Source: a virus. From it: a stretch of DNA of 64,000 bases. Positions 37,138 to 47,519 of the stretch are shown piece after piece. Under the pieces are notes generated by a model. It had not been told where the DNA came from, did not search any database, and saw only the letters and a list, made by a program, of their open reading frames with translations. Made by a program: the position numbers and the translations under genes. The number at the start of each line of letters is the position of its first letter. Position 1 is the first letter of the stretch. The DNA lies in the IMG/VR virus record IMGVR_UViG_3300037153_000324, positions 10,374 through 74,373 of that record; one strand, written 5' to 3'.

Positions 37138-37167
37138 TTGACAAACTCACAGTGGACGACTTAGATT
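37138..37167 (+). promoter_or_regulatory. Putative promoter
   Basis: TTGACA-N18-TAGATT. Confidence 0.4.
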
Positions 37168-37256: not shown

Positions 37257-37568
37257 GTGGCTCACGATGCTCCGCACGGACGACAGAAGTCATCGAAATT
37301 AGTCAAGAAGCCGCATGTAACCGAGCAGACGAAATTTGACCTTTGGTTGTCCCAATGCATGAATGACGGGACGCCTGTAATTGTCACTTTTTCGCTCGAT
37401 CTACAACCGATTTTGGGCGTTAGGACAACTCCTTGTTGGGTGCTCGTTGTTGACCGCTATTTTGTCCAATTGGAGCTTATCGATCTGTTCGAAAAATTCG
37501 GTGCCGGTGGTAATATCTTCTGGTTTCCGAAAGACGTTCTCAGGGCGGTTTCTCTTGCAATTTCATAG
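37257..37568 (+). CDS. Hfq/Sm-like protein (putative)
   Basis: D.WL....D.TPV.V.F / VDRYFVQL / WFPKDVL.AV aligns by eye to Hfq DPFL...VPVSIYL / FDQFVILL / VYKHAISTV. Confidence 0.5.
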   Translation: MAHDAPHGRQKSSKLVKKPHVTEQTKFDLWLSQCMNDGTPVIVTFSLDLQPILGVRTTPCWVLVVDRYFVQLELIDLFEKFGAGGNIFWFPKDVLRAVSLAIS

Positions 37569-37820: not shown

Positions 37821-38063
37821 TTGGCTGAAAAAACCAAAAAATCGCAGCCTTCTGCGGAAAAACCAATTTCAATCACTTTCGAAAACAAATTTCACAAGGA
37901 GCTTGAAAAAACCCTTCGCCAGTGGTTCGAAAAAAACGGGCAATTTTCAAAAAACGGCCTGCAAATAGAGTACGACTTTCGCGGACGGAAAAATTCCGTT
38001 TCGCTTCGCGTAATTGGACGACCCGGACAAATTCTCGTTCGCAAATGGAAACAAGGAACCTAA
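37821..38063 (+). CDS. Hypothetical protein
   Basis: GGAGGAG SD, TTG start. Confidence 0.45.
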   Translation: MAEKTKKSQPSAEKPISITFENKFHKELEKTLRQWFEKNGQFSKNGLQIEYDFRGRKNSVSLRVIGRPGQILVRKWKQGT

Positions 38064-38127
38064 TTCGCTGTTTTCAAATTTGGCAACTAGACAGAGCAGG
38101 GAACAAAGCGATAAGCAAGGAGATGCC

Positions 38128-39465
38128 GTGAGCGTCGAGAGCTACGTTATTTCAGCGTTGGTCGAGGAGGGATCGCCCAAAAAGGCTTTTTCCGAAGGCG
38201 TGAACGAAAGCGACTTCGAAATCTACGATGAGGAATTTCGTTGGATCGTAGATCGAGCCGAGAAGCGTAAGCCAGTCACCCCTCGAACATTCAAGGATGC
38301 GTTTCCGGATTTTGATTTCATCATCCCGAGGGAGACGCTTCCGGATCTGCTGGACGAATTGAAACAGGAACGAGCCTTTGTCTCGATTTCAAGTGCCATC
38401 GAGGAAGTCATTGTTGACCTGACCGCTGAGAATTCGCTTCGGAAGGCCGAGGAGCTACGTGAAATTCTCGGGGACGTTCTCCGTACGCATGCCGCGCATA
38501 GCGACGTGCTCATCAAAGCCGGTTGGCGCGATCATCTGAAACGAGTTAGGGATCTTCAGATACTTCGGGAGAATGGTGAAATTGCTGGAATCCCAACTGG
38601 CATCCTTCATTTCGATCAATACTGGGGCGGGCTGCAAGGGGAAGCCAGCTACCTGATTCTCGGACGGCCGGGTGATGCTAAGAGCTTTACCCTGGCGAAA
38701 TTCACGACAGAGGCAGCCTGGCAGGGATACCGTGTCGGTTTCTTTTCGCCCGAGATGACAGAGCATCAGCATCAGTGTAGGTTCCACACGCTTCTCTCTG
38801 CCAAATCTGAAATTCAGCAGGAGTGCAATCTCAAGGGTGCATTTCCCAACCGAGCGCTCAAGGATGGGTTCGGCTTCAACCTCAAGACGTACAAGCGCTT
38901 CCTGGAATATCTCGACAATTCGATGAAAGGTGAAATTTGTCTGTTTACGCGCAAATATCGGCGTGAGCGAATGACGACGAGCTACATCGAGTCGCGGGTG
39001 GAAGAGCTAGGGCTGGATCTTGTAATTGTCGATCCGCTCTATAAGCTGAAAGCGCCACGGCACAGGGGTACGAAGTGGGAGGAGCTTTCCGAGCTTACGG
39101 ACAATCTCACGAATATTGCGCATGCATTCAACATTCCGGTCATAATGTCCAATCAGGCGACGAGAGCGCTCGTCGGATCGAGGGGCGACCCGCCTGGTCG
39201 AGACACAAGCTTCGGATCGGATGCACCTGTGCAGGAGGCAGACGTTGTATTTGGCGTTCGCCATCACTCTGACGAGCGGATAATGAAAGTTGCCTGCTCA
39301 AAGAATCGGCATGGTGAGCCATTCAAGTTCACCATGAAATTCTTGCCCAACAAAGGTGTGATGGAAGATGTGACTCCTTTGTATGGCGAGTACAAGAACG
39401 GGTACGATCCTGAGATAGCTGAAGAGCTACGTGTAGCTATGCGAGAGGAAAATGAAAATGACTGA
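38128..39465 (+). CDS. dnaB: DnaB-like replicative helicase
   Basis: GIPTG, GRPGDAKS Walker A, FFSPEM, LVIVDPLY, SNQ, SDAPVQEADVV, KNRHG. Confidence 0.9.
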   Translation: MSVESYVISALVEEGSPKKAFSEGVNESDFEIYDEEFRWIVDRAEKRKPVTPRTFKDAFPDFDFIIPRETLPDLLDELKQERAFVSISSAIEEVIVDLTAENSLRKAEELREILGDVLRTHAAHSDVLIKAGWRDHLKRVRDLQILRENGEIAGIPTGILHFDQYWGGLQGEASYLILGRPGDAKSFTLAKFTTEAAWQGYRVGFFSPEMTEHQHQCRFHTLLSAKSEIQQECNLKGAFPNRALKDGFGFNLKTYKRFLEYLDNSMKGEICLFTRKYRRERMTTSYIESRVEELGLDLVIVDPLYKLKAPRHRGTKWEELSELTDNLTNIAHAFNIPVIMSNQATRALVGSRGDPPGRDTSFGSDAPVQEADVVFGVRHHSDERIMKVACSKNRHGEPFKFTMKFLPNKGVMEDVTPLYGEYKNGYDPEIAEELRVAMREENEND

Positions 39466-40149: not shown

Positions 40150-40416
40150 GTGCCTAGGGATTTGCGTGATCCTCAAGCGATAGGTCACTGGTTTGCCGAG
40201 CTTCGGGAAGCGCATCCCAACATGAAGGCGCATCAAATTGCTGACTACATTGACAGCGAAGTAGATGTGCTGAATTACACCGAATTGGAACAGACGATAG
40301 GCCAAGAAACTGTAATTCGATATCGCAGTGAGCTTTTCGAGCGTGCTGAGCAAGGGGATAGGTACGCGAAGTCGAGGCTCGATGGGCTTGCGTTCGAGGA
40401 GCCTAGCGACGGATGA
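40150..40416 (+). CDS. Hypothetical protein
   Basis: GTG after AGGAGG. Confidence 0.45.
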   Translation: MPRDLRDPQAIGHWFAELREAHPNMKAHQIADYIDSEVDVLNYTELEQTIGQETVIRYRSELFERAEQGDRYAKSRLDGLAFEEPSDG

Positions 40417-41513
40417 ATTACAAAGGTAGGAATATTGACCCGTTGAGCGTGTGGGATCGCTATGTCGAATTTCCGCCAGGGATCGACGCCGATAAGTCGA
40501 TGTTTCTTCCACTAGTTCTGTGCCCAAATCCTGAACATGACAATTCTCGCTCACCTGCATTTCAGATCAATACGACTGCGCCGCTTGTACATTGTTTCGC
40601 TCACTGTGGAATTTCAGGCACGTACGATCATGCCGTGGCGATGATCGAGGGTTACTACGATGACCTAAAGGTGGATCTAGGTGAAATTGACAGAATCCGG
40701 CAGAAGTCGGTAAAGGAGCGCTCGCGTGCGGAGCACGATAAAGTGGCTCGCTATTTCAGAGCGCAGCGAAAAGCAAGCAAGCTCATTCTTCGAGGCTCCA
40801 CTCGCTCCAAATTTTCTCGAAAAACCAGTGCCAGGAAAACGCAGGAAAAGAAATCCCAAATCAAGATCGACCTGAACTTCGACACTTTCATTCCGCAGAT
40901 CGGCTTGGAATATCTCGAAGGCCGAGGAATTACAGCAGAGTCGATTGCGCGGTGGGGGTTGGGCTGGCACCCTGACGAGAAGCGGCTCGTTATTCCAGCG
41001 CACGATGACAGGGGTACGCTCAGGTTTCTGATTCGGCGGGCGGTGAAGGATTCCCAGTGGCCCAAGTACCTGTACAGTGAGGGCTACCCCAAGACTTCCC
41101 TGCTCTTTGGGGGGTTGCAAACTGACCTAGGGATGGTACAATCCCGTGGACTGATCCTCGTAGAAGGGAGTTTCGATACGATCAAGCTTCACCAATACGG
41201 ATTGACGTGCGCAGCGGCCATTCTTGGCACAGGAATTTCACCCGAGCAGATGCGCATAGTGATGAAATTGAGGCCCAAGCGAATTTTCCTCATGTTCGAC
41301 CGCGATACGGCCGGTGTCACTAATATCTCGCTCGCAGCGAAATTGCTTGCCAGGAAATATCCGCTGTTCGTGTGCCGATATCCCAGGGGAAAATTCGATC
41401 CGGCCGAGCTAGTGAAGAAGGAGGCGTGGAATTCATTGATGAGAGCAGTGCCCTATTCGTTATGGAATAGGAAATCGAGACGGCCCGAATCGTCTCTAAC
41501 CGAAAGGAAATAA
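40413..41513 (+). CDS. DNA primase (Zn-binding domain plus Toprim)
   Basis: CPNPEHDN.RSP...HCFAHC; YL..RGI; LVEGSFD; MFDRDTAG. Confidence 0.9.
   Translation: MNYKGRNIDPLSVWDRYVEFPPGIDADKSMFLPLVLCPNPEHDNSRSPAFQINTTAPLVHCFAHCGISGTYDHAVAMIEGYYDDLKVDLGEIDRIRQKSVKERSRAEHDKVARYFRAQRKASKLILRGSTRSKFSRKTSARKTQEKKSQIKIDLNFDTFIPQIGLEYLEGRGITAESIARWGLGWHPDEKRLVIPAHDDRGTLRFLIRRAVKDSQWPKYLYSEGYPKTSLLFGGLQTDLGMVQSRGLILVEGSFDTIKLHQYGLTCAAAILGTGISPEQMRIVMKLRPKRIFLMFDRDTAGVTNISLAAKLLARKYPLFVCRYPRGKFDPAELVKKEAWNSLMRAVPYSLWNRKSRRPESSLTERK
41115..41142 (+). promoter_or_regulatory. Promoter inside the primase gene
   Basis: TTGCAA-N16-TACAAT with extended -10 TG. Confidence 0.55.
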
Positions 41514-41514
41514 G

Positions 41515-42654
41515 TTGGCGAGGACAAGAGAGAAGTTTCAGATTCGCCGCGTCAAGTCGAAAGAGGATCGCAAGCGGCCGTCTGTTTTCATGCGATTGAA
41601 AACGGATGAGGCGTTCAAGGGTGTGGCGTTGTTCGAGCCAGATCCCGAGTTGGACGACAACCCCGGCTATTTCGAGTATTACGACCACTGGGATCAGCAG
41701 GGGCAACAGTACGTCCCTTGTGCGGGTGAAATGTGCCCCTTCTGCAAGGCGAACGACAATCCTTCGACTCGGGCAATGACCGTCTGGTATTTCCCTGAGG
41801 CGGCAGACGTGAAAGACCAGATCAAGGTTTTCACGATGAATTTCAGCACGATCAACGACATTACCGACGAGGCCGAGGAAGAGGACGGCTTGATCGGTAA
41901 GAAGGTGCGCATCAAGCGTCTGTCCGACAAGGGCGATTACAAGGTGCGCGTGCTCACCGAGAAGGGCCTGACCGAAACGCAGTTGAAAAAGGTCATGGCT
42001 CGTCTCGATGAAGTGTTCCCTGACGGTCTGGAAGGCATTACGCTCGCACAGTTGAAGCGTCAGATGGAGCGCTTGCGTGCTCTGGACGAGTTGGAGGACG
42101 ACGACGAGGACGACGAGCAGGACGAGCAGCCCAAGGCTCGCCGTGGTCGGGCAATTTCAAAGGACGAGGAAGAGGACGAAGAGGAAGAGGACGACGAAGA
42201 GGAAGAGGACGAAGAGGAAGAGGACGACGAAGAGGACGAAGAGCCGACCGACGAAGAGGACGAAGAGGAGGAAGAGGAGGAGGACGACGAAGAGGACGAC
42301 GACGAGGAAGAGGACGAGGAAGAGCAGGAGCAGGCTGAAATTACAGCGGCCGAGTACGAAGTTCTCAAGTCGAGCGAGCGTGACGACACGTTCGAGTTGC
42401 AGAACGACGAGGGCAAGGTGAAGATGTGGCTCGGAGAGAACGTCGAGGTTGACTACGACGAATTCCCGAAGGGCACGCCTGTCACCGTCTCCGCGCTTCA
42501 GGACGACGAGGGCGATTGGATCATCACTGAAATCAAGGTGAAAAAGCGTCGTGGTCGTCCGCCTGCGTCCAAGGCCAAGACGCGGACAAGCCGCGCAGCC
42601 TCGTCTCGTTCCAGCGGTTCGACTCGCGGCCGGGGTAGGCCGCGTAAGCGGTAA
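41515..42654 (+). CDS. ssDNA-binding protein (gp32-like) with acidic tract, extra OB-like domain and AT-hook tail
   Basis: HW...C...CPFC Zn core after the primase; long E/D tract; RRGRPP and RGRGRPRKR. Confidence 0.65.
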   Translation: MARTREKFQIRRVKSKEDRKRPSVFMRLKTDEAFKGVALFEPDPELDDNPGYFEYYDHWDQQGQQYVPCAGEMCPFCKANDNPSTRAMTVWYFPEAADVKDQIKVFTMNFSTINDITDEAEEEDGLIGKKVRIKRLSDKGDYKVRVLTEKGLTETQLKKVMARLDEVFPDGLEGITLAQLKRQMERLRALDELEDDDEDDEQDEQPKARRGRAISKDEEEDEEEEDDEEEEDEEEEDDEEDEEPTDEEDEEEEEEEDDEEDDDEEEDEEEQEQAEITAAEYEVLKSSERDDTFELQNDEGKVKMWLGENVEVDYDEFPKGTPVTVSALQDDEGDWIITEIKVKKRRGRPPASKAKTRTSRAASSRSSGSTRGRGRPRKR

Positions 42655-42659
42655 GGAAA

Positions 42660-43008
42660 TTTCCACTTCGTGAACGATCAGGTTGTAACGGGCAAGCGTG
42701 GTAGTGAGCGGACTGTCGGTAAGGGCTTGGCGGTTTGCTCGCGTGCTACCACAAGGAACACCGTTTCGGCGGTGCCTGCTTCTACGGCAGTTGCGTTTGG
42801 GCACTGTGCAACCCTGCCCCTAAGTGAACCCGTGCGGAGTGGAAAATACATTCGGGCGGTGCGCTAAATGCGCGGCGTTATCGCCCGGATTCCAGGGAGT
42901 GTGCGCGTTCTTAGCGGTCACGCAGCCGCCCTGGAAAGCCGGGTGGGGAAGGGAATTTCCCTCTAGGGTTTCAACCCCTCTAGTGCGGAAGTCTCCGCCC
43001 CACCCGGT
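42660..43008 (+). ncRNA. Candidate large structured ncRNA 1
   Basis: Nested long stems with many G-U pairs, a UUCG loop and multi-way junctions; no credible ORF. Confidence 0.6.
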
Positions 43009-43049
43009 AATTGATTTGGCCCGAAACAACAGAAAGGAAATAAACGCGA

Positions 43050-43382
43050 ATGACATTGCCACTTCTAACGTCCGCTCAGCTTGTCGAGGAAATTGCCGAG
43101 GATACGGGCTATTCCAAGTCCGATGTGCGGCATTTCATGGACTCGCTGGCGCGGGCGATCACGGATCATGTTTCCGATTGTGAGAGAGTCAGGATTGGGA
43201 ACCTCGTCCAGATCGAGCCGAAGTTGAAAAAAGCACAGAAAAAGCGGATGGGTCGGAATCCGGCTACAGGTGAGGACATTGAAATTGCTGCCAAGCCAGC
43301 GAGTGTGCGCGTAGGTGTTCGGCCACTCGCTGGCTTGAAGGACGCGATGCCGTCCGTGCAGAAGCTTAGGAAGCGAGTCTGA
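43050..43382 (+). CDS. HU family DNA-binding protein
   Basis: IAEDTG.SK.DV; RMGRNPATGE.I.IAAKPA. Confidence 0.95.
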   Translation: MTLPLLTSAQLVEEIAEDTGYSKSDVRHFMDSLARAITDHVSDCERVRIGNLVQIEPKLKKAQKKRMGRNPATGEDIEIAAKPASVRVGVRPLAGLKDAMPSVQKLRKRV

Positions 43383-43656: not shown

Positions 43657-43659
43657 AAT

Positions 43660-44055
43660 TTGGCACTCCGAGGCAGGAGACGCACTGACGGAACGGCATG
43701 GCCTAGCTTGACTGGGCCTACGGCTACACGGAACGGTAGTCCCAGTGCGATTCGAGAGGGGAAGGCGTGGTACGAACCAGCGACGTGCGCACGGTAACTG
43801 GTGAGTGGTAGGAGTGCCAATGAAATTGCCTCGGCCGGGGGTATCTTGGCGGCAGGATGCCGGGGCAAGTTTGGGGTCAGGTTCCGACGATTCCCTCCGT
43901 TCCCTCACGTTTCGGTGGGATGGACGTAAGTGAAAAAGACGGCCCATAGCCATGACGCCCGTCTAATCAGCCTGGCTCCAAGAGTCTGCTCTGGCCTTGC
44001 GGCGCTAGAGCAGCATGGGGGCGCTCCTAACGAGGGTGGGGGCGCTCCCTTTTTT
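43660..44055 (+). ncRNA. Candidate large structured ncRNA 2, ending in an intrinsic terminator
   Basis: Consecutive closed domains (10-13 bp stems); final GGGGGCGCTCCT/GGGGGCGCTCCC hairpin plus T6. Confidence 0.6.
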
Positions 44056-44068
44056 CAAGGAGATGCGC

Positions 44069-44272
44069 ATGAAGAAATTAGCTGAATTGACAAATGCCAC
44101 AAAAGCGCAGCTAGTAGCGTTCATCAACACGGCTCTCGTTCTGATTGTTTCGTTTGGGATTACGTTGAGTGATGCACAGACCGCTGCAATAATTTCGTTT
44201 GTGAACGCCGGTCTTTCTCTTTGGATTGCCATGACGTATCGTGATAGCCCAAAGCGAATTTCAGATGAGTAA
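44069..44272 (+). CDS. Holin-like two-TM protein
   Basis: LVLIVSFGITLSDAQTAAII motif like actinophage holins; AAGGAG SD. Confidence 0.55.
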   Translation: MKKLAELTNATKAQLVAFINTALVLIVSFGITLSDAQTAAIISFVNAGLSLWIAMTYRDSPKRISDE

Positions 44273-47200
44273 CTATATAGAATTACATAATCACTCCACC
44301 TTCAGTATTTCGGACGGCTTTGGTTCACCGCAAGCTATTGTTGATCGTGCGAAGGAACTAGGGTGGAATGCCGTTGCATTGACGGAGCACGGGCACATGA
44401 TAAGCGCTCCGACTTTTTACAAGGCCGCTAGAACCGCTGGAATCAAGCCGATCATCGGTTGCGAGCTTTACGTTACAGGCGACTGGTCGTTTGGTATGCG
44501 GGAGAAGGTTGCGCTTACTGAGCAATTTCATCTTACGGTGCTAGCACTCTCGAAGGAGGGCTACCAGAATCTTGTTGCCTGGACGAGCGAGGCGATGAAG
44601 CGTGAAAATTTCTACCGCAAGCCGCGCATCTCTGTTGTGCGCATGGCAGAGATTGCACCGTGGCCGTTGCACCACAACGTTGTGCTTTCCGGGTGCCTGG
44701 CTTCGGAGCTTTGTCGTTCGCTTGAGAATGGAAATGGCTTGGGGATTGGAATGGAGTATGCGTTACAAATGAAATCTTTGTTCCCGAATTTCTATATCGA
44801 GATTCAGGATCACAAGATTTCAAAGTTTGACGATGACCGCTACCCGGCCTATCAAGAGCTTCTGGCAAAAGAAGTCATAGTTCAAGGGAAGCTCCTAGAA
44901 ATTTCAACACTGACTGCTGTGCCTGCAATTTTGACGAATGACTCACATCTTCAGAGGCCGCAGGATAGAAAAGCGCATGTAGCGATGAAGGCATCCGCAT
45001 GGCGATCAAGGGATGACCTTCATTATGGCCGCTCGCAGGAACAGGTAATTACCTCATACCTGGCGGACTATGCTTATTTTGGTAATTACATGCGAGATAT
45101 GGAGCAAGTCTGTGATAATGCTGATTTACCAAGGGCGTGTCTGGCTTCTGTTTCTGAAATTGTCGAAGCCGCAGATATCGTTCTCGACCCACTCGACAAC
45201 ACGGTATATTCGATTCCCTTTTCAGGCGAATCCGACCCCCTACACGCTCTCCGTCGAGCGAGTAAGTCTCGTCTGGCAAATGGGGTTTGGAAGCACGGTC
45301 GGATTGCCCGTGAGAGATTTGAGCATGAACTAGAGTCGATGGGGGATTTTGCTCATTATCTCGTCCTCATGGCGAAATTCATCAAGGAAGCGCATCGGCA
45401 GGGAATTCTGACGTGGACGCGGGGATCGGCTGCTAACTCATACCTGGCCTACTGCCTCGGGATTCATGAAATTGATTCCATCGAGTACGGTCTGACGTTC
45501 TCGCGTTTCTTCAATCCGGCTCGAAAGAAATTGCCGGATATCGACGTGGACATAGATCCGGAGCGGTATGACGATTTCATGCGCATTGTGCAGGAGCACA
45601 TGGAGCCGTTGATCGGGGCTGGTCAGGTAGTGCGCATGTGCGATTTCGGGTTGGCGCAGAATCGAGCCGCATTCAGAATGGCCGCATCTGCTCTTGGAAT
45701 TCCCAAGGAGGAGCAAGACGAAATTTCAAAGCTCCTTCCACAGATGATCGACTCTGGAATGGTGGACGAGGATACCGATGTGTTCATTGCGCTGCGTGAG
45801 GATTATCCCGAGCTATATGAAATTACGTCAGCGATCTTTGATTCGGTCAAGTCAGTGGGCCAGCACGCGAGCGCATGGGTATTCGGTACTGCTGATCGCA
45901 AGGTGGAGGACTGGATTCCTCTTTATCTAATTGCATCGAGTAATGCGCTGGTGACTCAATACGACTTCCACCAGATCGAAGATTTCGGTTTGGTGAAAAT
46001 GGACTTTCTTCGGCTCAAGACTCTGAGTATCGCGAAAAAGGTCATGCAGATGGTCGGGAAGTCGCCAATGGAATTCTACGACGTGCCGCTCGATGACTCC
46101 AAGACTTTCGAGATGATGCGTGCGGGTGACGTAGAAGGCGTCCACACTCTGCAAGGGAAGGAAACGCGGCGTGGTATCGTAGAGATGCAAGTTGAAAATG
46201 TCCACGACGTAATCGTGGCGGCGGCGTTGTATCGTCCTGCGCATACCCGTGAAGGTCGAGATAAACTCTACCTACAGCGGAGGCGTGGTGATGAAATTCC
46301 CTCTTACCCGCACTCAATTGTTGAGCGAATTGTTGGTGGAACGTTCGGAATTCCGGTATTTCAAGAGCAGGCGATGGAGATTGGTTATGCCGTCGGGATG
46401 GATGATGCAGGTGTCGATGACATTTACCAAGCCATCAAGAAGGCAAAAGGGGTTGGCAAGGGTGCAAAGGAAGCATTCTCTAAGATCGAGCCGAAATTCC
46501 TAAAGGCCGCAAAACGAAAAATGAAACCGCATGAGGCGAAAGGAAGTTGGCTGTATGTTCAAGGTTTCCAGGGTTACGGTTTCAACAAAGGTCACGCAAG
46601 CTCGTATGGTGTGCTTGCGACGAGGATGGCGTATCTGAAATGTCACTATCCGGTCGAATTTTTCGCAGCGATCCTCGATACGTTTCCCGAGAAGGCGTCG
46701 TACATTGCTGCGGCGAGAAACGCAGGGTTGAAATTCTTGCCACCGGACGTGAATCATTCTGGCAAGGGGTTCGGTATCGACCGTCAGTTAGGCGGAATTC
46801 GAGTTGGGCTAGGAAAGATTCACGGCTTGGGGCCGGTGGCGGTTGATGAAATTGTTAGGGGCCAGCCTTTTCAGACCTACGACGACTTTCTTGGACGTAC
46901 GACGCGCAGGGCAGTCAACGTCAAGCGCCTTGAAAATCTCCGCACGGTGGGTGCGTTCTCCTCGCTCGGCCTTCATCACAGAACGCGAGACGAGGAGGAA
47001 TTTCAACTACTTGGATTCACGCTCGGCCGTCCTATCGCTCTCCGGGGCTGCAAGCCTCGGCACGTTGGTGCTCGCACATCGGATAGCGGCTGGAAGCACT
47101 TGGGACGTGAGAAGGGGGTGGAGCTTACTGCGGGCCGTGCAAGTGTGAGTAAGCTGTTCTGGATTCCGCCTGATGTGAAATTGGAACTGAAGGCTTCTCC

Positions 47201-47519
47201 ATGGGCACAGGTGAAAACATGGCTGATGCTGGCAGTGGACGAAAATGGAATTCCGGTTCACTGGATGGTCAACGAGGACAAGAAGCACGTTGTCATGCTA
47301 CTGAAATACCTGCATCGGAAGTGTCAAGGCTCGGTAATTTGCGCGGATGGAATGATCCGACTTCCGTTCGTGCAGAACGGCCCACCTGGCTTCCGTTTCT
47401 TCGGGGTTTCGGGAACGTATGATGGTGAGCCGCAGTGTTGGCATGTGCAAGAGATTCAAGTAAAAGCGATTTTGGAAATTGAACGGCAAAAGCGCATAGA
47501 GCGATACAGAGGAGGATGA
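44265..47519 (+). CDS. dnaE: DNA polymerase III alpha subunit
   Basis: PHP (LHNHS.FS..DG, TEHG, TNDSH), RGSAANS, PDIDVD, KMDFL.L, VFQEQ.M, YGFNKGH. Confidence 0.95.
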   Translation: MSNYIELHNHSTFSISDGFGSPQAIVDRAKELGWNAVALTEHGHMISAPTFYKAARTAGIKPIIGCELYVTGDWSFGMREKVALTEQFHLTVLALSKEGYQNLVAWTSEAMKRENFYRKPRISVVRMAEIAPWPLHHNVVLSGCLASELCRSLENGNGLGIGMEYALQMKSLFPNFYIEIQDHKISKFDDDRYPAYQELLAKEVIVQGKLLEISTLTAVPAILTNDSHLQRPQDRKAHVAMKASAWRSRDDLHYGRSQEQVITSYLADYAYFGNYMRDMEQVCDNADLPRACLASVSEIVEAADIVLDPLDNTVYSIPFSGESDPLHALRRASKSRLANGVWKHGRIARERFEHELESMGDFAHYLVLMAKFIKEAHRQGILTWTRGSAANSYLAYCLGIHEIDSIEYGLTFSRFFNPARKKLPDIDVDIDPERYDDFMRIVQEHMEPLIGAGQVVRMCDFGLAQNRAAFRMAASALGIPKEEQDEISKLLPQMIDSGMVDEDTDVFIALREDYPELYEITSAIFDSVKSVGQHASAWVFGTADRKVEDWIPLYLIASSNALVTQYDFHQIEDFGLVKMDFLRLKTLSIAKKVMQMVGKSPMEFYDVPLDDSKTFEMMRAGDVEGVHTLQGKETRRGIVEMQVENVHDVIVAAALYRPAHTREGRDKLYLQRRRGDEIPSYPHSIVERIVGGTFGIPVFQEQAMEIGYAVGMDDAGVDDIYQAIKKAKGVGKGAKEAFSKIEPKFLKAAKRKMKPHEAKGSWLYVQGFQGYGFNKGHASSYGVLATRMAYLKCHYPVEFFAAILDTFPEKASYIAAARNAGLKFLPPDVNHSGKGFGIDRQLGGIRVGLGKIHGLGPVAVDEIVRGQPFQTYDDFLGRTTRRAVNVKRLENLRTVGAFSSLGLHHRTRDEEEFQLLGFTLGRPIALRGCKPRHVGARTSDSGWKHLGREKGVELTAGRASVSKLFWIPPDVKLELKASPWAQVKTWLMLAVDENGIPVHWMVNEDKKHVVMLLKYLHRKCQGSVICADGMIRLPFVQNGPPGFRFFGVSGTYDGEPQCWHVQEIQVKAILEIERQKRIERYRGG

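Follow-up and report, generated by a model that had tools for sequence, protein, structure and literature searches.

The 395-nt gap between an SSB-like gene and an HU gene in an uncultured phage reads as an enlarged hairpin spacer

Between the genes for an SSB-like protein and an HU protein, an uncultured phage carries a gap of 395 nt (42655–43049), and the question raised by this locus is whether the gap holds a new large structured RNA. A sequence-only reading had proposed exactly this: an unrecognised plus-strand RNA, named RNA 1, in which a long stem closes a multibranch domain that is followed by further hairpins. The window analysed here is the whole stretch of DNA, 64,000 nt long, and corresponds to bases 10374–74373 of a 74,373-bp IMG/VR record that bears direct terminal repeats. 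Its genes are nearly all on the plus strand, as is every gene flanking the SSB–HU gap. The genes surrounding the gap are as follows.

38014–39465, DnaB-type helicase (Pfam)
40413–41513, Toprim primase (Pfam)
41515–42654, plus strand, gp32-like SSB of 379 aa (AlphaFold model and PDB fold match)
43050–43382, plus strand, HU gene (PF00216, E 8.9e-18)
44241–47519, PolIII-alpha (Pfam)

The 379-aa SSB-like protein has no sequence match in Pfam, PHROG or PDB. Its AlphaFold model (pLDDT 85.5) finds T4 and RB69 gp32 as the best PDB matches (probability 0.97–0.99, E 1.5e-3). The protein consists, in order, of a gp32-like N-domain with a His/Cys3 motif, a long acidic tract (~70 residues) and a basic GRP-rich tail with two GRP (AT-hook-like) motifs, and residues H50, C61, C66 and C69 are invariant in 10 relatives. 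Because of the gp32-like fold match, the His/Cys3 motif and the acidic tract, “between SSB and HU” seems a reasonable description of the position, as far as a structural model can support it. HU itself has more than 3,400 homologues, and the identical protein is encoded by 6 contigs in all. The closest cellular relatives of HU (45–54% identity; loci L187–L266) are nearly all from Solirubrobacterales or Thermoleophilia MAGs, and because this is the class of its nearest cellular relatives, Solirubrobacterales/Thermoleophilia is suggested as the probable host lineage, despite the 52% GC of the phage.

Several other features of the genome were recorded along the way. Neither Pfam nor PHROG matches the ORF at 37257–37568 at E ≤ 0.1. 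Across the 74-kb genome there are 100 copies of the heptamer AATTTCA and 106 of its complement TGAAATT, where 3.4 of each would be expected, on both strands and in genic as well as intergenic positions; copies in relatives frequently share bases with the SSB stop codon, in the form TAATTTCA. The left arm of the record, before the window (G000:C1), contains inverted repeats of 28–30 nt with 93% identity at 2914–2943/4036–4065 and 6260–6287/6454–6481, which enclose 1,092 nt and 166 nt, respectively.

Folding of the gap gives the following elements, listed in order of position.

42660–42845, plus strand, “domain 1”, a phage-specific stretch of 186 nt bounded by stem P1
42660–71/42834–45, P1, the closing stem of 12 bp (up to 13) with 2 G-U pairs
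42696–42754, plus strand, P2, a hairpin of 23 bp with 7 G-U pairs
about 42849–42891, plus strand, hairpin B (an “H1” member, defined below), with closing stem TTCGGG/CCCGGA and loop AAAUGCGCGGCG
about 42890–42936, hairpin C, with an 8-bp outer stem TTCCAGGG/CCCTGGAA (pair probability 0.95)
about 42938–43008, module D, a branched or extended hairpin that is closed by a GC-rich stem of 11 bp and has the tail UAAUUGAUUU (pair probability 1.0)
43017–43049, plus strand, HU leader, with a conserved GCCCGAA box and the Shine-Dalgarno sequence AAAGGAAA

All the pairings quoted for RNA 1 are present where they had been placed. In the gap we verified TTCGGGCGGT/ATCGCCCGGA, the outer stem of hairpin C and GCCGGGTGGGG/CCCCACCCGGT, along with the CACCGT-TTCG-GCGGTG hairpin and GTGGTAG/CTACCAC, the latter with a G-U-rich extension of 15–16 bp (6 G-U). 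The plus strand of the 395-nt gap has a minimum free energy of −173.3 kcal/mol, compared with −150.6 ± 5.9 in dinucleotide shuffles (z −3.9, 0/100), and the minus strand gives z −2.5. For the 353-nt core, z is −4.5 on the plus strand and −2.95 on the minus strand. Overall, the gap therefore folds better than shuffled sequence (z −3.9 to −4.5, 0/100). Four local hairpins, P2, B, C and D, keep pair probabilities of 0.73–1.0 in every context tested.

Domain 1 as a whole has z −2.84 on the plus strand and −0.49 on the minus strand, the former at about the 5th percentile of this genome’s 200-nt windows (mean −0.66, sd 1.24, minimum −4.75). P2 is the one clearly significant element within it, with z −4.54 (0/200) on the plus strand, −1.04 on the minus strand and a pair probability of 0.73–0.95 across all contexts. 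The stretch at 42755–42833, which contains the TTCG hairpin and two more hairpins that had been proposed beside it, is no better than shuffles (z +0.7). As for P1, which was said to close the domain, 9 of 60 shuffled versions of the 395 nt (15%) have an uninterrupted helix of 13 bp or more as their longest. The probability of P1 is 0.96 in the excised 353-nt RNA and about 0 in an 800-nt context; none of the four longer contexts includes it in the predicted fold, and a fold forced to contain it is 2.5–4.8 kcal/mol less stable. Domain 1 also has a predicted long-range helix in which 42681–42685 pairs with the conserved HU leader at 43027–43031 (P 0.2–0.8). A multibranch domain closed by P1 is thus not upheld, since the length of the helix is within chance and P1 is outcompeted once flanking mRNA is added. 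Nor is a single large structured RNA supported: the signal is that of the four local hairpins, P1 closure and the 3′ half of domain 1 are within chance, and the block is absent from the 13 related contigs described below. The supported structure is an array of hairpins rather than one multibranch fold.

The abundance of G-U pairs had been taken as a sign of a plus-strand RNA rather than DNA palindromes. G-U pairs account for 19 of the 121 predicted pairs. The argument holds for P2 and for hairpin B, which fold asymmetrically (for B, z −3.35 on the plus strand and −1.26 on the minus strand), but not for C (z −2.8 on plus, −4.4 on minus) or D (z −5.5 on plus, −4.5 on minus). The latter pair bears on the idea that the element works as DNA, as a cruciform or as single-stranded plus-strand hairpins serving replication; at the DNA level it might serve as a signal for priming or helicase loading, as a site associated with an origin or as junction DNA bound by HU. 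HU proteins prefer cruciform and junction DNA, the element lies between SSB and HU and near the helicase, primase and polymerase genes, and C and D fold equally well on both strands. Set against this, the stretch is GC-rich and lacks an AT-rich unwinding region or iterons, P2 and B rely on G-U (G-T) pairs, fold poorly on the minus strand and would form no symmetric cruciforms, and a single hairpin, with no conservation of its stem sequence, is enough for the relatives. We consider a DNA-level function very unlikely.

The gap was next compared with known RNA families. None of the 4227 models of Rfam 15 matched the whole window at the gathering score, and searches of 2 kb and of 421 nt at E ≤ 10 returned only chance-level candidates (eeev_FSE, mir-663 and Acido-Lenti-1; 12–16 bits against cut-offs of 37–80). 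RNA 1 thus matches no Rfam family, in keeping with its description as unrecognised. The statement that it is neither tRNA nor tmRNA likewise stands, as ARAGORN finds 0 such genes in 64 kb. The cobalamin riboswitch RF00174 was tested owing to a likeness of a second candidate in the window, RNA 2, and more weakly of RNA 1, to the cobalamin core; it has no match at E ≤ 10 in the 74-kb genome, whereas the control search was positive in 11 of 14 reference genomes.

The gap is non-coding. A candidate small gene within it is an ORF of 65 aa at 42670–42867, which has a GTG start and is in frame with the SSB gene. This ORF is open for 65 codons with AAGGA 12 nt upstream, its codon score (0.083 per codon) is above that of 98% of out-of-frame ORFs, and small ORFs are packed into the variable HU-to-polymerase gap of relatives. 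Against a small protein, the ORF matches only itself among 5.8 billion protein clusters, belongs to no Pfam or PHROG family, has a GC2 of 0.60 compared with 0.44 in real genes, scores at the 10th percentile of called small genes and would account for only half of the gap. A protein-coding small gene was rejected on these grounds, and we hold it to be extremely unlikely.

Homologues of RNA 1 were sought at increasing distance. Domain 1, C and D have none in the rest of the genome, and RNA 1 has none in GenBank phages (blastn), in five related IMG/VR genomes (BLAST) or in all loci, including 14 related loci (nhmmer and sensitive blastn). The covariance model of RNA 1, R1, recovered only itself from 27 sources. 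A pattern made from the P1 arms gave a single hit in IMG/VR, inside a 436-aa ORF of an unrelated contig, where ~0.7 chance hits are estimated if roughly 1e11 bases were scanned, and this hit was rejected; a 20-mer from the junction gave no hit in IMG/VR. The 401 Thermoleophilia genomes yielded 5 hits at E ≤ 0.01, with 4 expected by chance. No closer relatives of the phage were found in IMG/VR with HU, PolIII-alpha or the 90-aa ORF as single queries, nor by searching genome contigs with the SSB-domain alignment, and a metagenome scan for relatives returned mostly bacterial HU. An orphan across all of these searches, domain 1 appears to be specific to this phage.

Relatives were retrieved with aligned HU homologues and an alignment of the SSB-like domain. 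They comprise 13 distinct contigs (L002, L003, L006, L007, L082, L087, L091, L092, L102, L108, L110, L112 and L178) that share the order primase, SSB-like, HU, PolIII-alpha, with 44–73% protein identity to the window. The RNA 1 block is absent from all 13. In 11 of them the SSB–HU spacer is only about 75–125 nt. The long spacer of L006 contains a free-standing HNH homing-endonuclease gene (L006:3606–4001; PF13392, E 7.8e-11), and that of L112 a 150-nt element homologous to RNA 2 of the window. Ten hairpin regions from these spacers were folded, namely nine short spacers and the hairpin part of the L112 gap. In eight, the fold consists of one long GC-rich hairpin or two (z −3.0 to −4.6), and the stems are unrelated in sequence; the remaining two are weak (z −1.4 and +0.7). 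Downstream of the spacer hairpin, relatives have a conserved (A)UUUUCA(R)CCCGA(R) box and then the RBS; CCCGA(A/G) precedes the HU RBS in most of them. In the window, module D is followed by TTGATTTGGCCCGAAAC (UUGAUUUGGCCCGAAAC) and then the RBS, and the HU stretch from Shine-Dalgarno sequence to AUG is predicted to be 63–69% unpaired.

One of the four hairpins has counterparts in the relatives. A regular expression for TTCGGG...TGCG(CG)GCG...CCCGRA, run on all loci, was found only in the window (hairpin B), L006 and L082, and in the two relatives this B-type closing stem and loop core (L006:3495–3536 and L082:1338–1382) directly follow the SSB stop codon. The UGCGG loop core also occurs in SSB–HU gap hairpins of L091, L102 and L110, making five relatives in all. 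We use “H1” for a hairpin that follows the SSB-like gene and has a long stem and a loop with UGCGG, its closest form having the closing stem UUCGGG/CCCGRA; hairpin B has all of these features, with a 2-nt loop insertion. In an alignment of the six hairpins, 85.7% of cells are paired (68% in shuffles; 0/500), with a covariation score of 0.53 compared with 0.25 (0/500). Seven of ten pairs are compensatory, in an alignment of n = 6 that is based on the loop and so favours paired columns. Hairpin B scores 29.3 bits with model R3, but B is a training sequence of R3, and a search for further H1 copies with this model recovered only the training set. Even with this limit, hairpin B is the SSB/HU junction hairpin of the phage family on sequence and position. 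In L006 and L082 the junction hairpin is likewise trailed by a second, terminator-like hairpin, of which D is the positional counterpart in the window.

The site between SSB and HU is an insertion hot spot with variable content, because most relatives have just a short hairpin spacer there, L006 an HNH gene and L112 an RNA-2-like element. This invites the reading that the extra 280 nt of RNA 1 are evolutionary debris from insertion at a recombination hot spot, with no function beyond being tolerated: either a small gene in decay or a MITE-like element with the P1 inverted repeats at its ends. The hairpins would then persist because untranslated RNA that is structured and G-rich avoids polarity. 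The differing cargo of the site in relatives (nothing, an HNH gene, or an RNA-2-like element with ATTTCAG direct repeats), the 12-bp inverted repeats bounding domain 1, its orphan status in every search and the statistically unremarkable parts of domain 1 all fit such an origin. In its variable site, the HNH gene of L006, the inverted repeats and the 7-nt direct repeats flanking the element of L112, the locus resembles MITE-like and homing-endonuclease insertions. It differs from them in that domain 1 is single-copy in the genome and in relatives, has no clear target-site duplication and carries no detectable transposase or endonuclease remnant; a MITE-type element was rejected for the first two reasons, although the inverted repeats are present. 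A decayed HU copy and a decayed gene from relatives were also rejected, as an HU profile found nothing in six-frame translations and tblastx against relatives gave nothing below E 0.02. The hexamer AATTTC/GAAATT occurs in the stretch at the genome’s usual density, which means that it does not look recently foreign, and the plus-strand-specific stability of P2 and B also speaks against debris.

The 5′ arm of hairpin C (42892–42908) matches HU coding sequence at 43296–43312 in 16 of 17 bases, in a stretch that belongs to a perfect 14-bp inverted repeat within the HU gene (43292–43305/43324–43337). The match could be due to chance or to a local gene-conversion patch, and as a hint of local patchwork it favours the account of RNA 1 as debris. 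We regard that account as unlikely.

RNA 2 is relevant to a further reading, in which domain 1, alone or with B–D, is a functional structured RNA. RNA 2 (window 43657–43822) has a homologue in the metagenome contig L112, at 1497–1644, within the SSB–HU gap. RNAalifold on the two members gives 36 pairs, 8 of them compensatory, and the unpaired stretches are near-invariant (e.g. GAGAGGGGAAGGCGTGG and GACGGAACGG). The element is flanked by the 7-nt ATTTCAG direct repeats in L112 and by TGAAATT on both sides in the window, and no Rfam family matches it. With a homologue that shows compensatory changes and invariant junctions, RNA 2 looks more promising as an RNA candidate than RNA 1. Model R2, built from the two members, has no hit to 42655–43049 at E ≤ 10, and RNA 1 was rejected as a member of the RNA 2 family. 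The 3′ strand of P1 (42835–42847) is 85% complementary to the 5′ strand of the RNA 2 P1 (43658–43670); in principle, judged by complementarity, the two could form a long-range stem bracketing HU and the 90-aa ORF.

A functional structured RNA could take two forms. As a cis sensor, domain 1 would be a riboswitch- or protein-binding leader that sets read-through of the B–C–D hairpins into HU; as a trans-acting RNA, it would be a stable RNA cut from the operon transcript. The plus-strand-specific stability of domain 1 and of P2 is consistent with either form, as are a GC content of 58% compared with 52% for the genome, the high probability of P1 in the excised RNA and the predicted helix with the HU leader. 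RNA 2 adds an analogy: it has the same layout, and its closed domain has a homologue with compensatory pairs at the SSB–HU site of L112. RNA 1 resembles riboswitch and leader RNAs in the order of its parts, with a P1-closed domain (~186 nt) first, then hairpins, then a terminal hairpin that is GC-rich and has a U-rich tail, and last the HU RBS; RNA 2 repeats this order ahead of the polymerase operon. RNA 1 differs from these RNAs in having no Rfam match (RF00174 included), no conserved homologue of domain 1, a P1 that is not robust, and neither an established ligand nor an established alternative antiterminator pairing. The absence of domain 1 homologues extends to related genomes and loci, IMG/VR patterns, GenBank phages and the 401 Thermoleophilia genomes; in addition, the model of RNA 2 is not matched, the 3′ half of domain 1 is no better than shuffles, P1 is within chance and loses to flanking pairings, and no promoter is predicted. 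GOLLD and ROOL, large phage-associated RNAs in Rfam, offer another comparison. RNA 1 likewise lies in a phage genome, is non-coding and structured over a long stretch and is enriched in GC, but it is much shorter, does not lie beside tRNAs (there are none in the window) and has neither an Rfam match nor a family. On balance a functional structured RNA is rather improbable. A more specific version is also improbable: domain 1 would be a lineage-specific cis-regulatory sensor or excised stable RNA, inserted at the SSB–HU site where L112 has a conserved, covarying RNA-2-type domain, both being exchangeable cassettes that gate HU and PolIII-alpha expression in soil actinophage-like viruses.

RNA 1 instead reads as an enlarged version of the hairpin spacer found in related phages, rather than as a demonstrable new large RNA gene. 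Our best explanation, a tentative one, is that a cis-acting intercistronic module, serving as terminator or mRNA stabiliser, has expanded in this lineage. RNA 1 would be an untranslated spacer within a polycistronic mRNA of the replication module, in the order helicase, primase, gp32-like SSB, spacer, HU and 90-aa ORF. This phage family places a long stable hairpin right after the SSB gene, with a conserved UGCGG loop in a sub-group and, in at least two relatives, a second, terminator-like hairpin next to it. Such hairpins probably exert a cis effect on their mRNA, by stopping transcription in part and/or by forming a 3′ exonuclease barrier and processing site, which would leave the SSB message more abundant than the HU and polymerase messages downstream of it. 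The module of this phage has become an array of four strong hairpins, with B conserved, D terminator-like and beside the HU leader, C extra, and P2 located in the 186-nt insert, domain 1.

We infer that RNA 1 is co-transcribed in an mRNA that spans the helicase gene to the 90-aa ORF. A sigma-70 consensus scan predicts no promoter within the gap or immediately upstream of it, with the reservation that the consensus may not fit the host; the best plus-strand promoter upstream is predicted at 37138–37167. In a terminator scan, the sole canonical plus-strand terminator in the 33–50 kb region is at 44017–44049, and within the gap only a 5-bp stem at 42776–42790 was reported. Three nucleotides upstream of the canonical terminator, which is followed by TTTTTT, lies a hairpin with the loop CCUUGCGGCGCU on a 10-bp stem (43986–44013), and the core of this loop is the same as in the junction hairpin of L006 and L082. 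Downstream of the terminator come AAGGAG, an RBS, and a small ORF that overlaps the start of PolIII-alpha; the stretch described here covers 43986–44058.

The cis spacer reading is supported by the plus-strand genes, the lack of a promoter at the gap, the conserved gene order, the short hairpin spacers of relatives, the conservation of hairpin B, the robustness of the hairpins to context and the status of the site as an insertion hot spot. The terminator or stabiliser role itself is one we infer for the hairpins. None of them is a textbook intrinsic terminator, which counts against the reading: B and C are followed by no U-tract, and D has a GC-rich 11-bp stem and a weak U-rich tail, but it is branched and the terminator scan does not call it. 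One hairpin is enough in relatives, and the extra 280 nt are not explained by a terminator or stabiliser function. P2 and its strand asymmetry suggest selection on more RNA structure than a simple barrier requires. A last point against the reading comes by analogy, in that the layout of closed domain, hairpins, terminator-like hairpin and RBS is mirrored by RNA 2, whose domain seems to be conserved in the manner of a ligand- or protein-binding RNA.

Precedents for a cis spacer exist. REP hairpins lie between malE and malF, RNase III sites lie between T7 early genes, and terminator hairpins follow T4 gene 32. Like these intercistronic stem-loops, RNA 1 sits between co-directional cistrons, straight after a gene needed in bulk (SSB), and consists of long GC-rich hairpins; the position of the hairpin is kept in relatives while stem sequences drift. 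It differs in size, its four hairpins and a further 130 nt replacing the one or two hairpins of relatives, and in lacking a canonical U-tract; cleavage or termination is putative. Unlike REP elements, it has no repeated copies elsewhere in the genome.

The value of this check is mostly negative, since it reduces “large structured RNA 1” to four local hairpins plus a closing stem that is not supported, and it shifts attention to RNA 2. If the interpretation as an expanded intercistronic module is true, RNA 1 would represent ordinary phage operon engineering. Intercistronic hairpin modules are already known, and the new items would be the orphan insert and, as a small addition, a conserved UGCGG-loop hairpin that marks the SSB/HU junction in an uncultured soil phage family, probably of Solirubrobacterales. 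Should domain 1 be functional, it would point to swappable RNA cassettes controlling phage replication genes.
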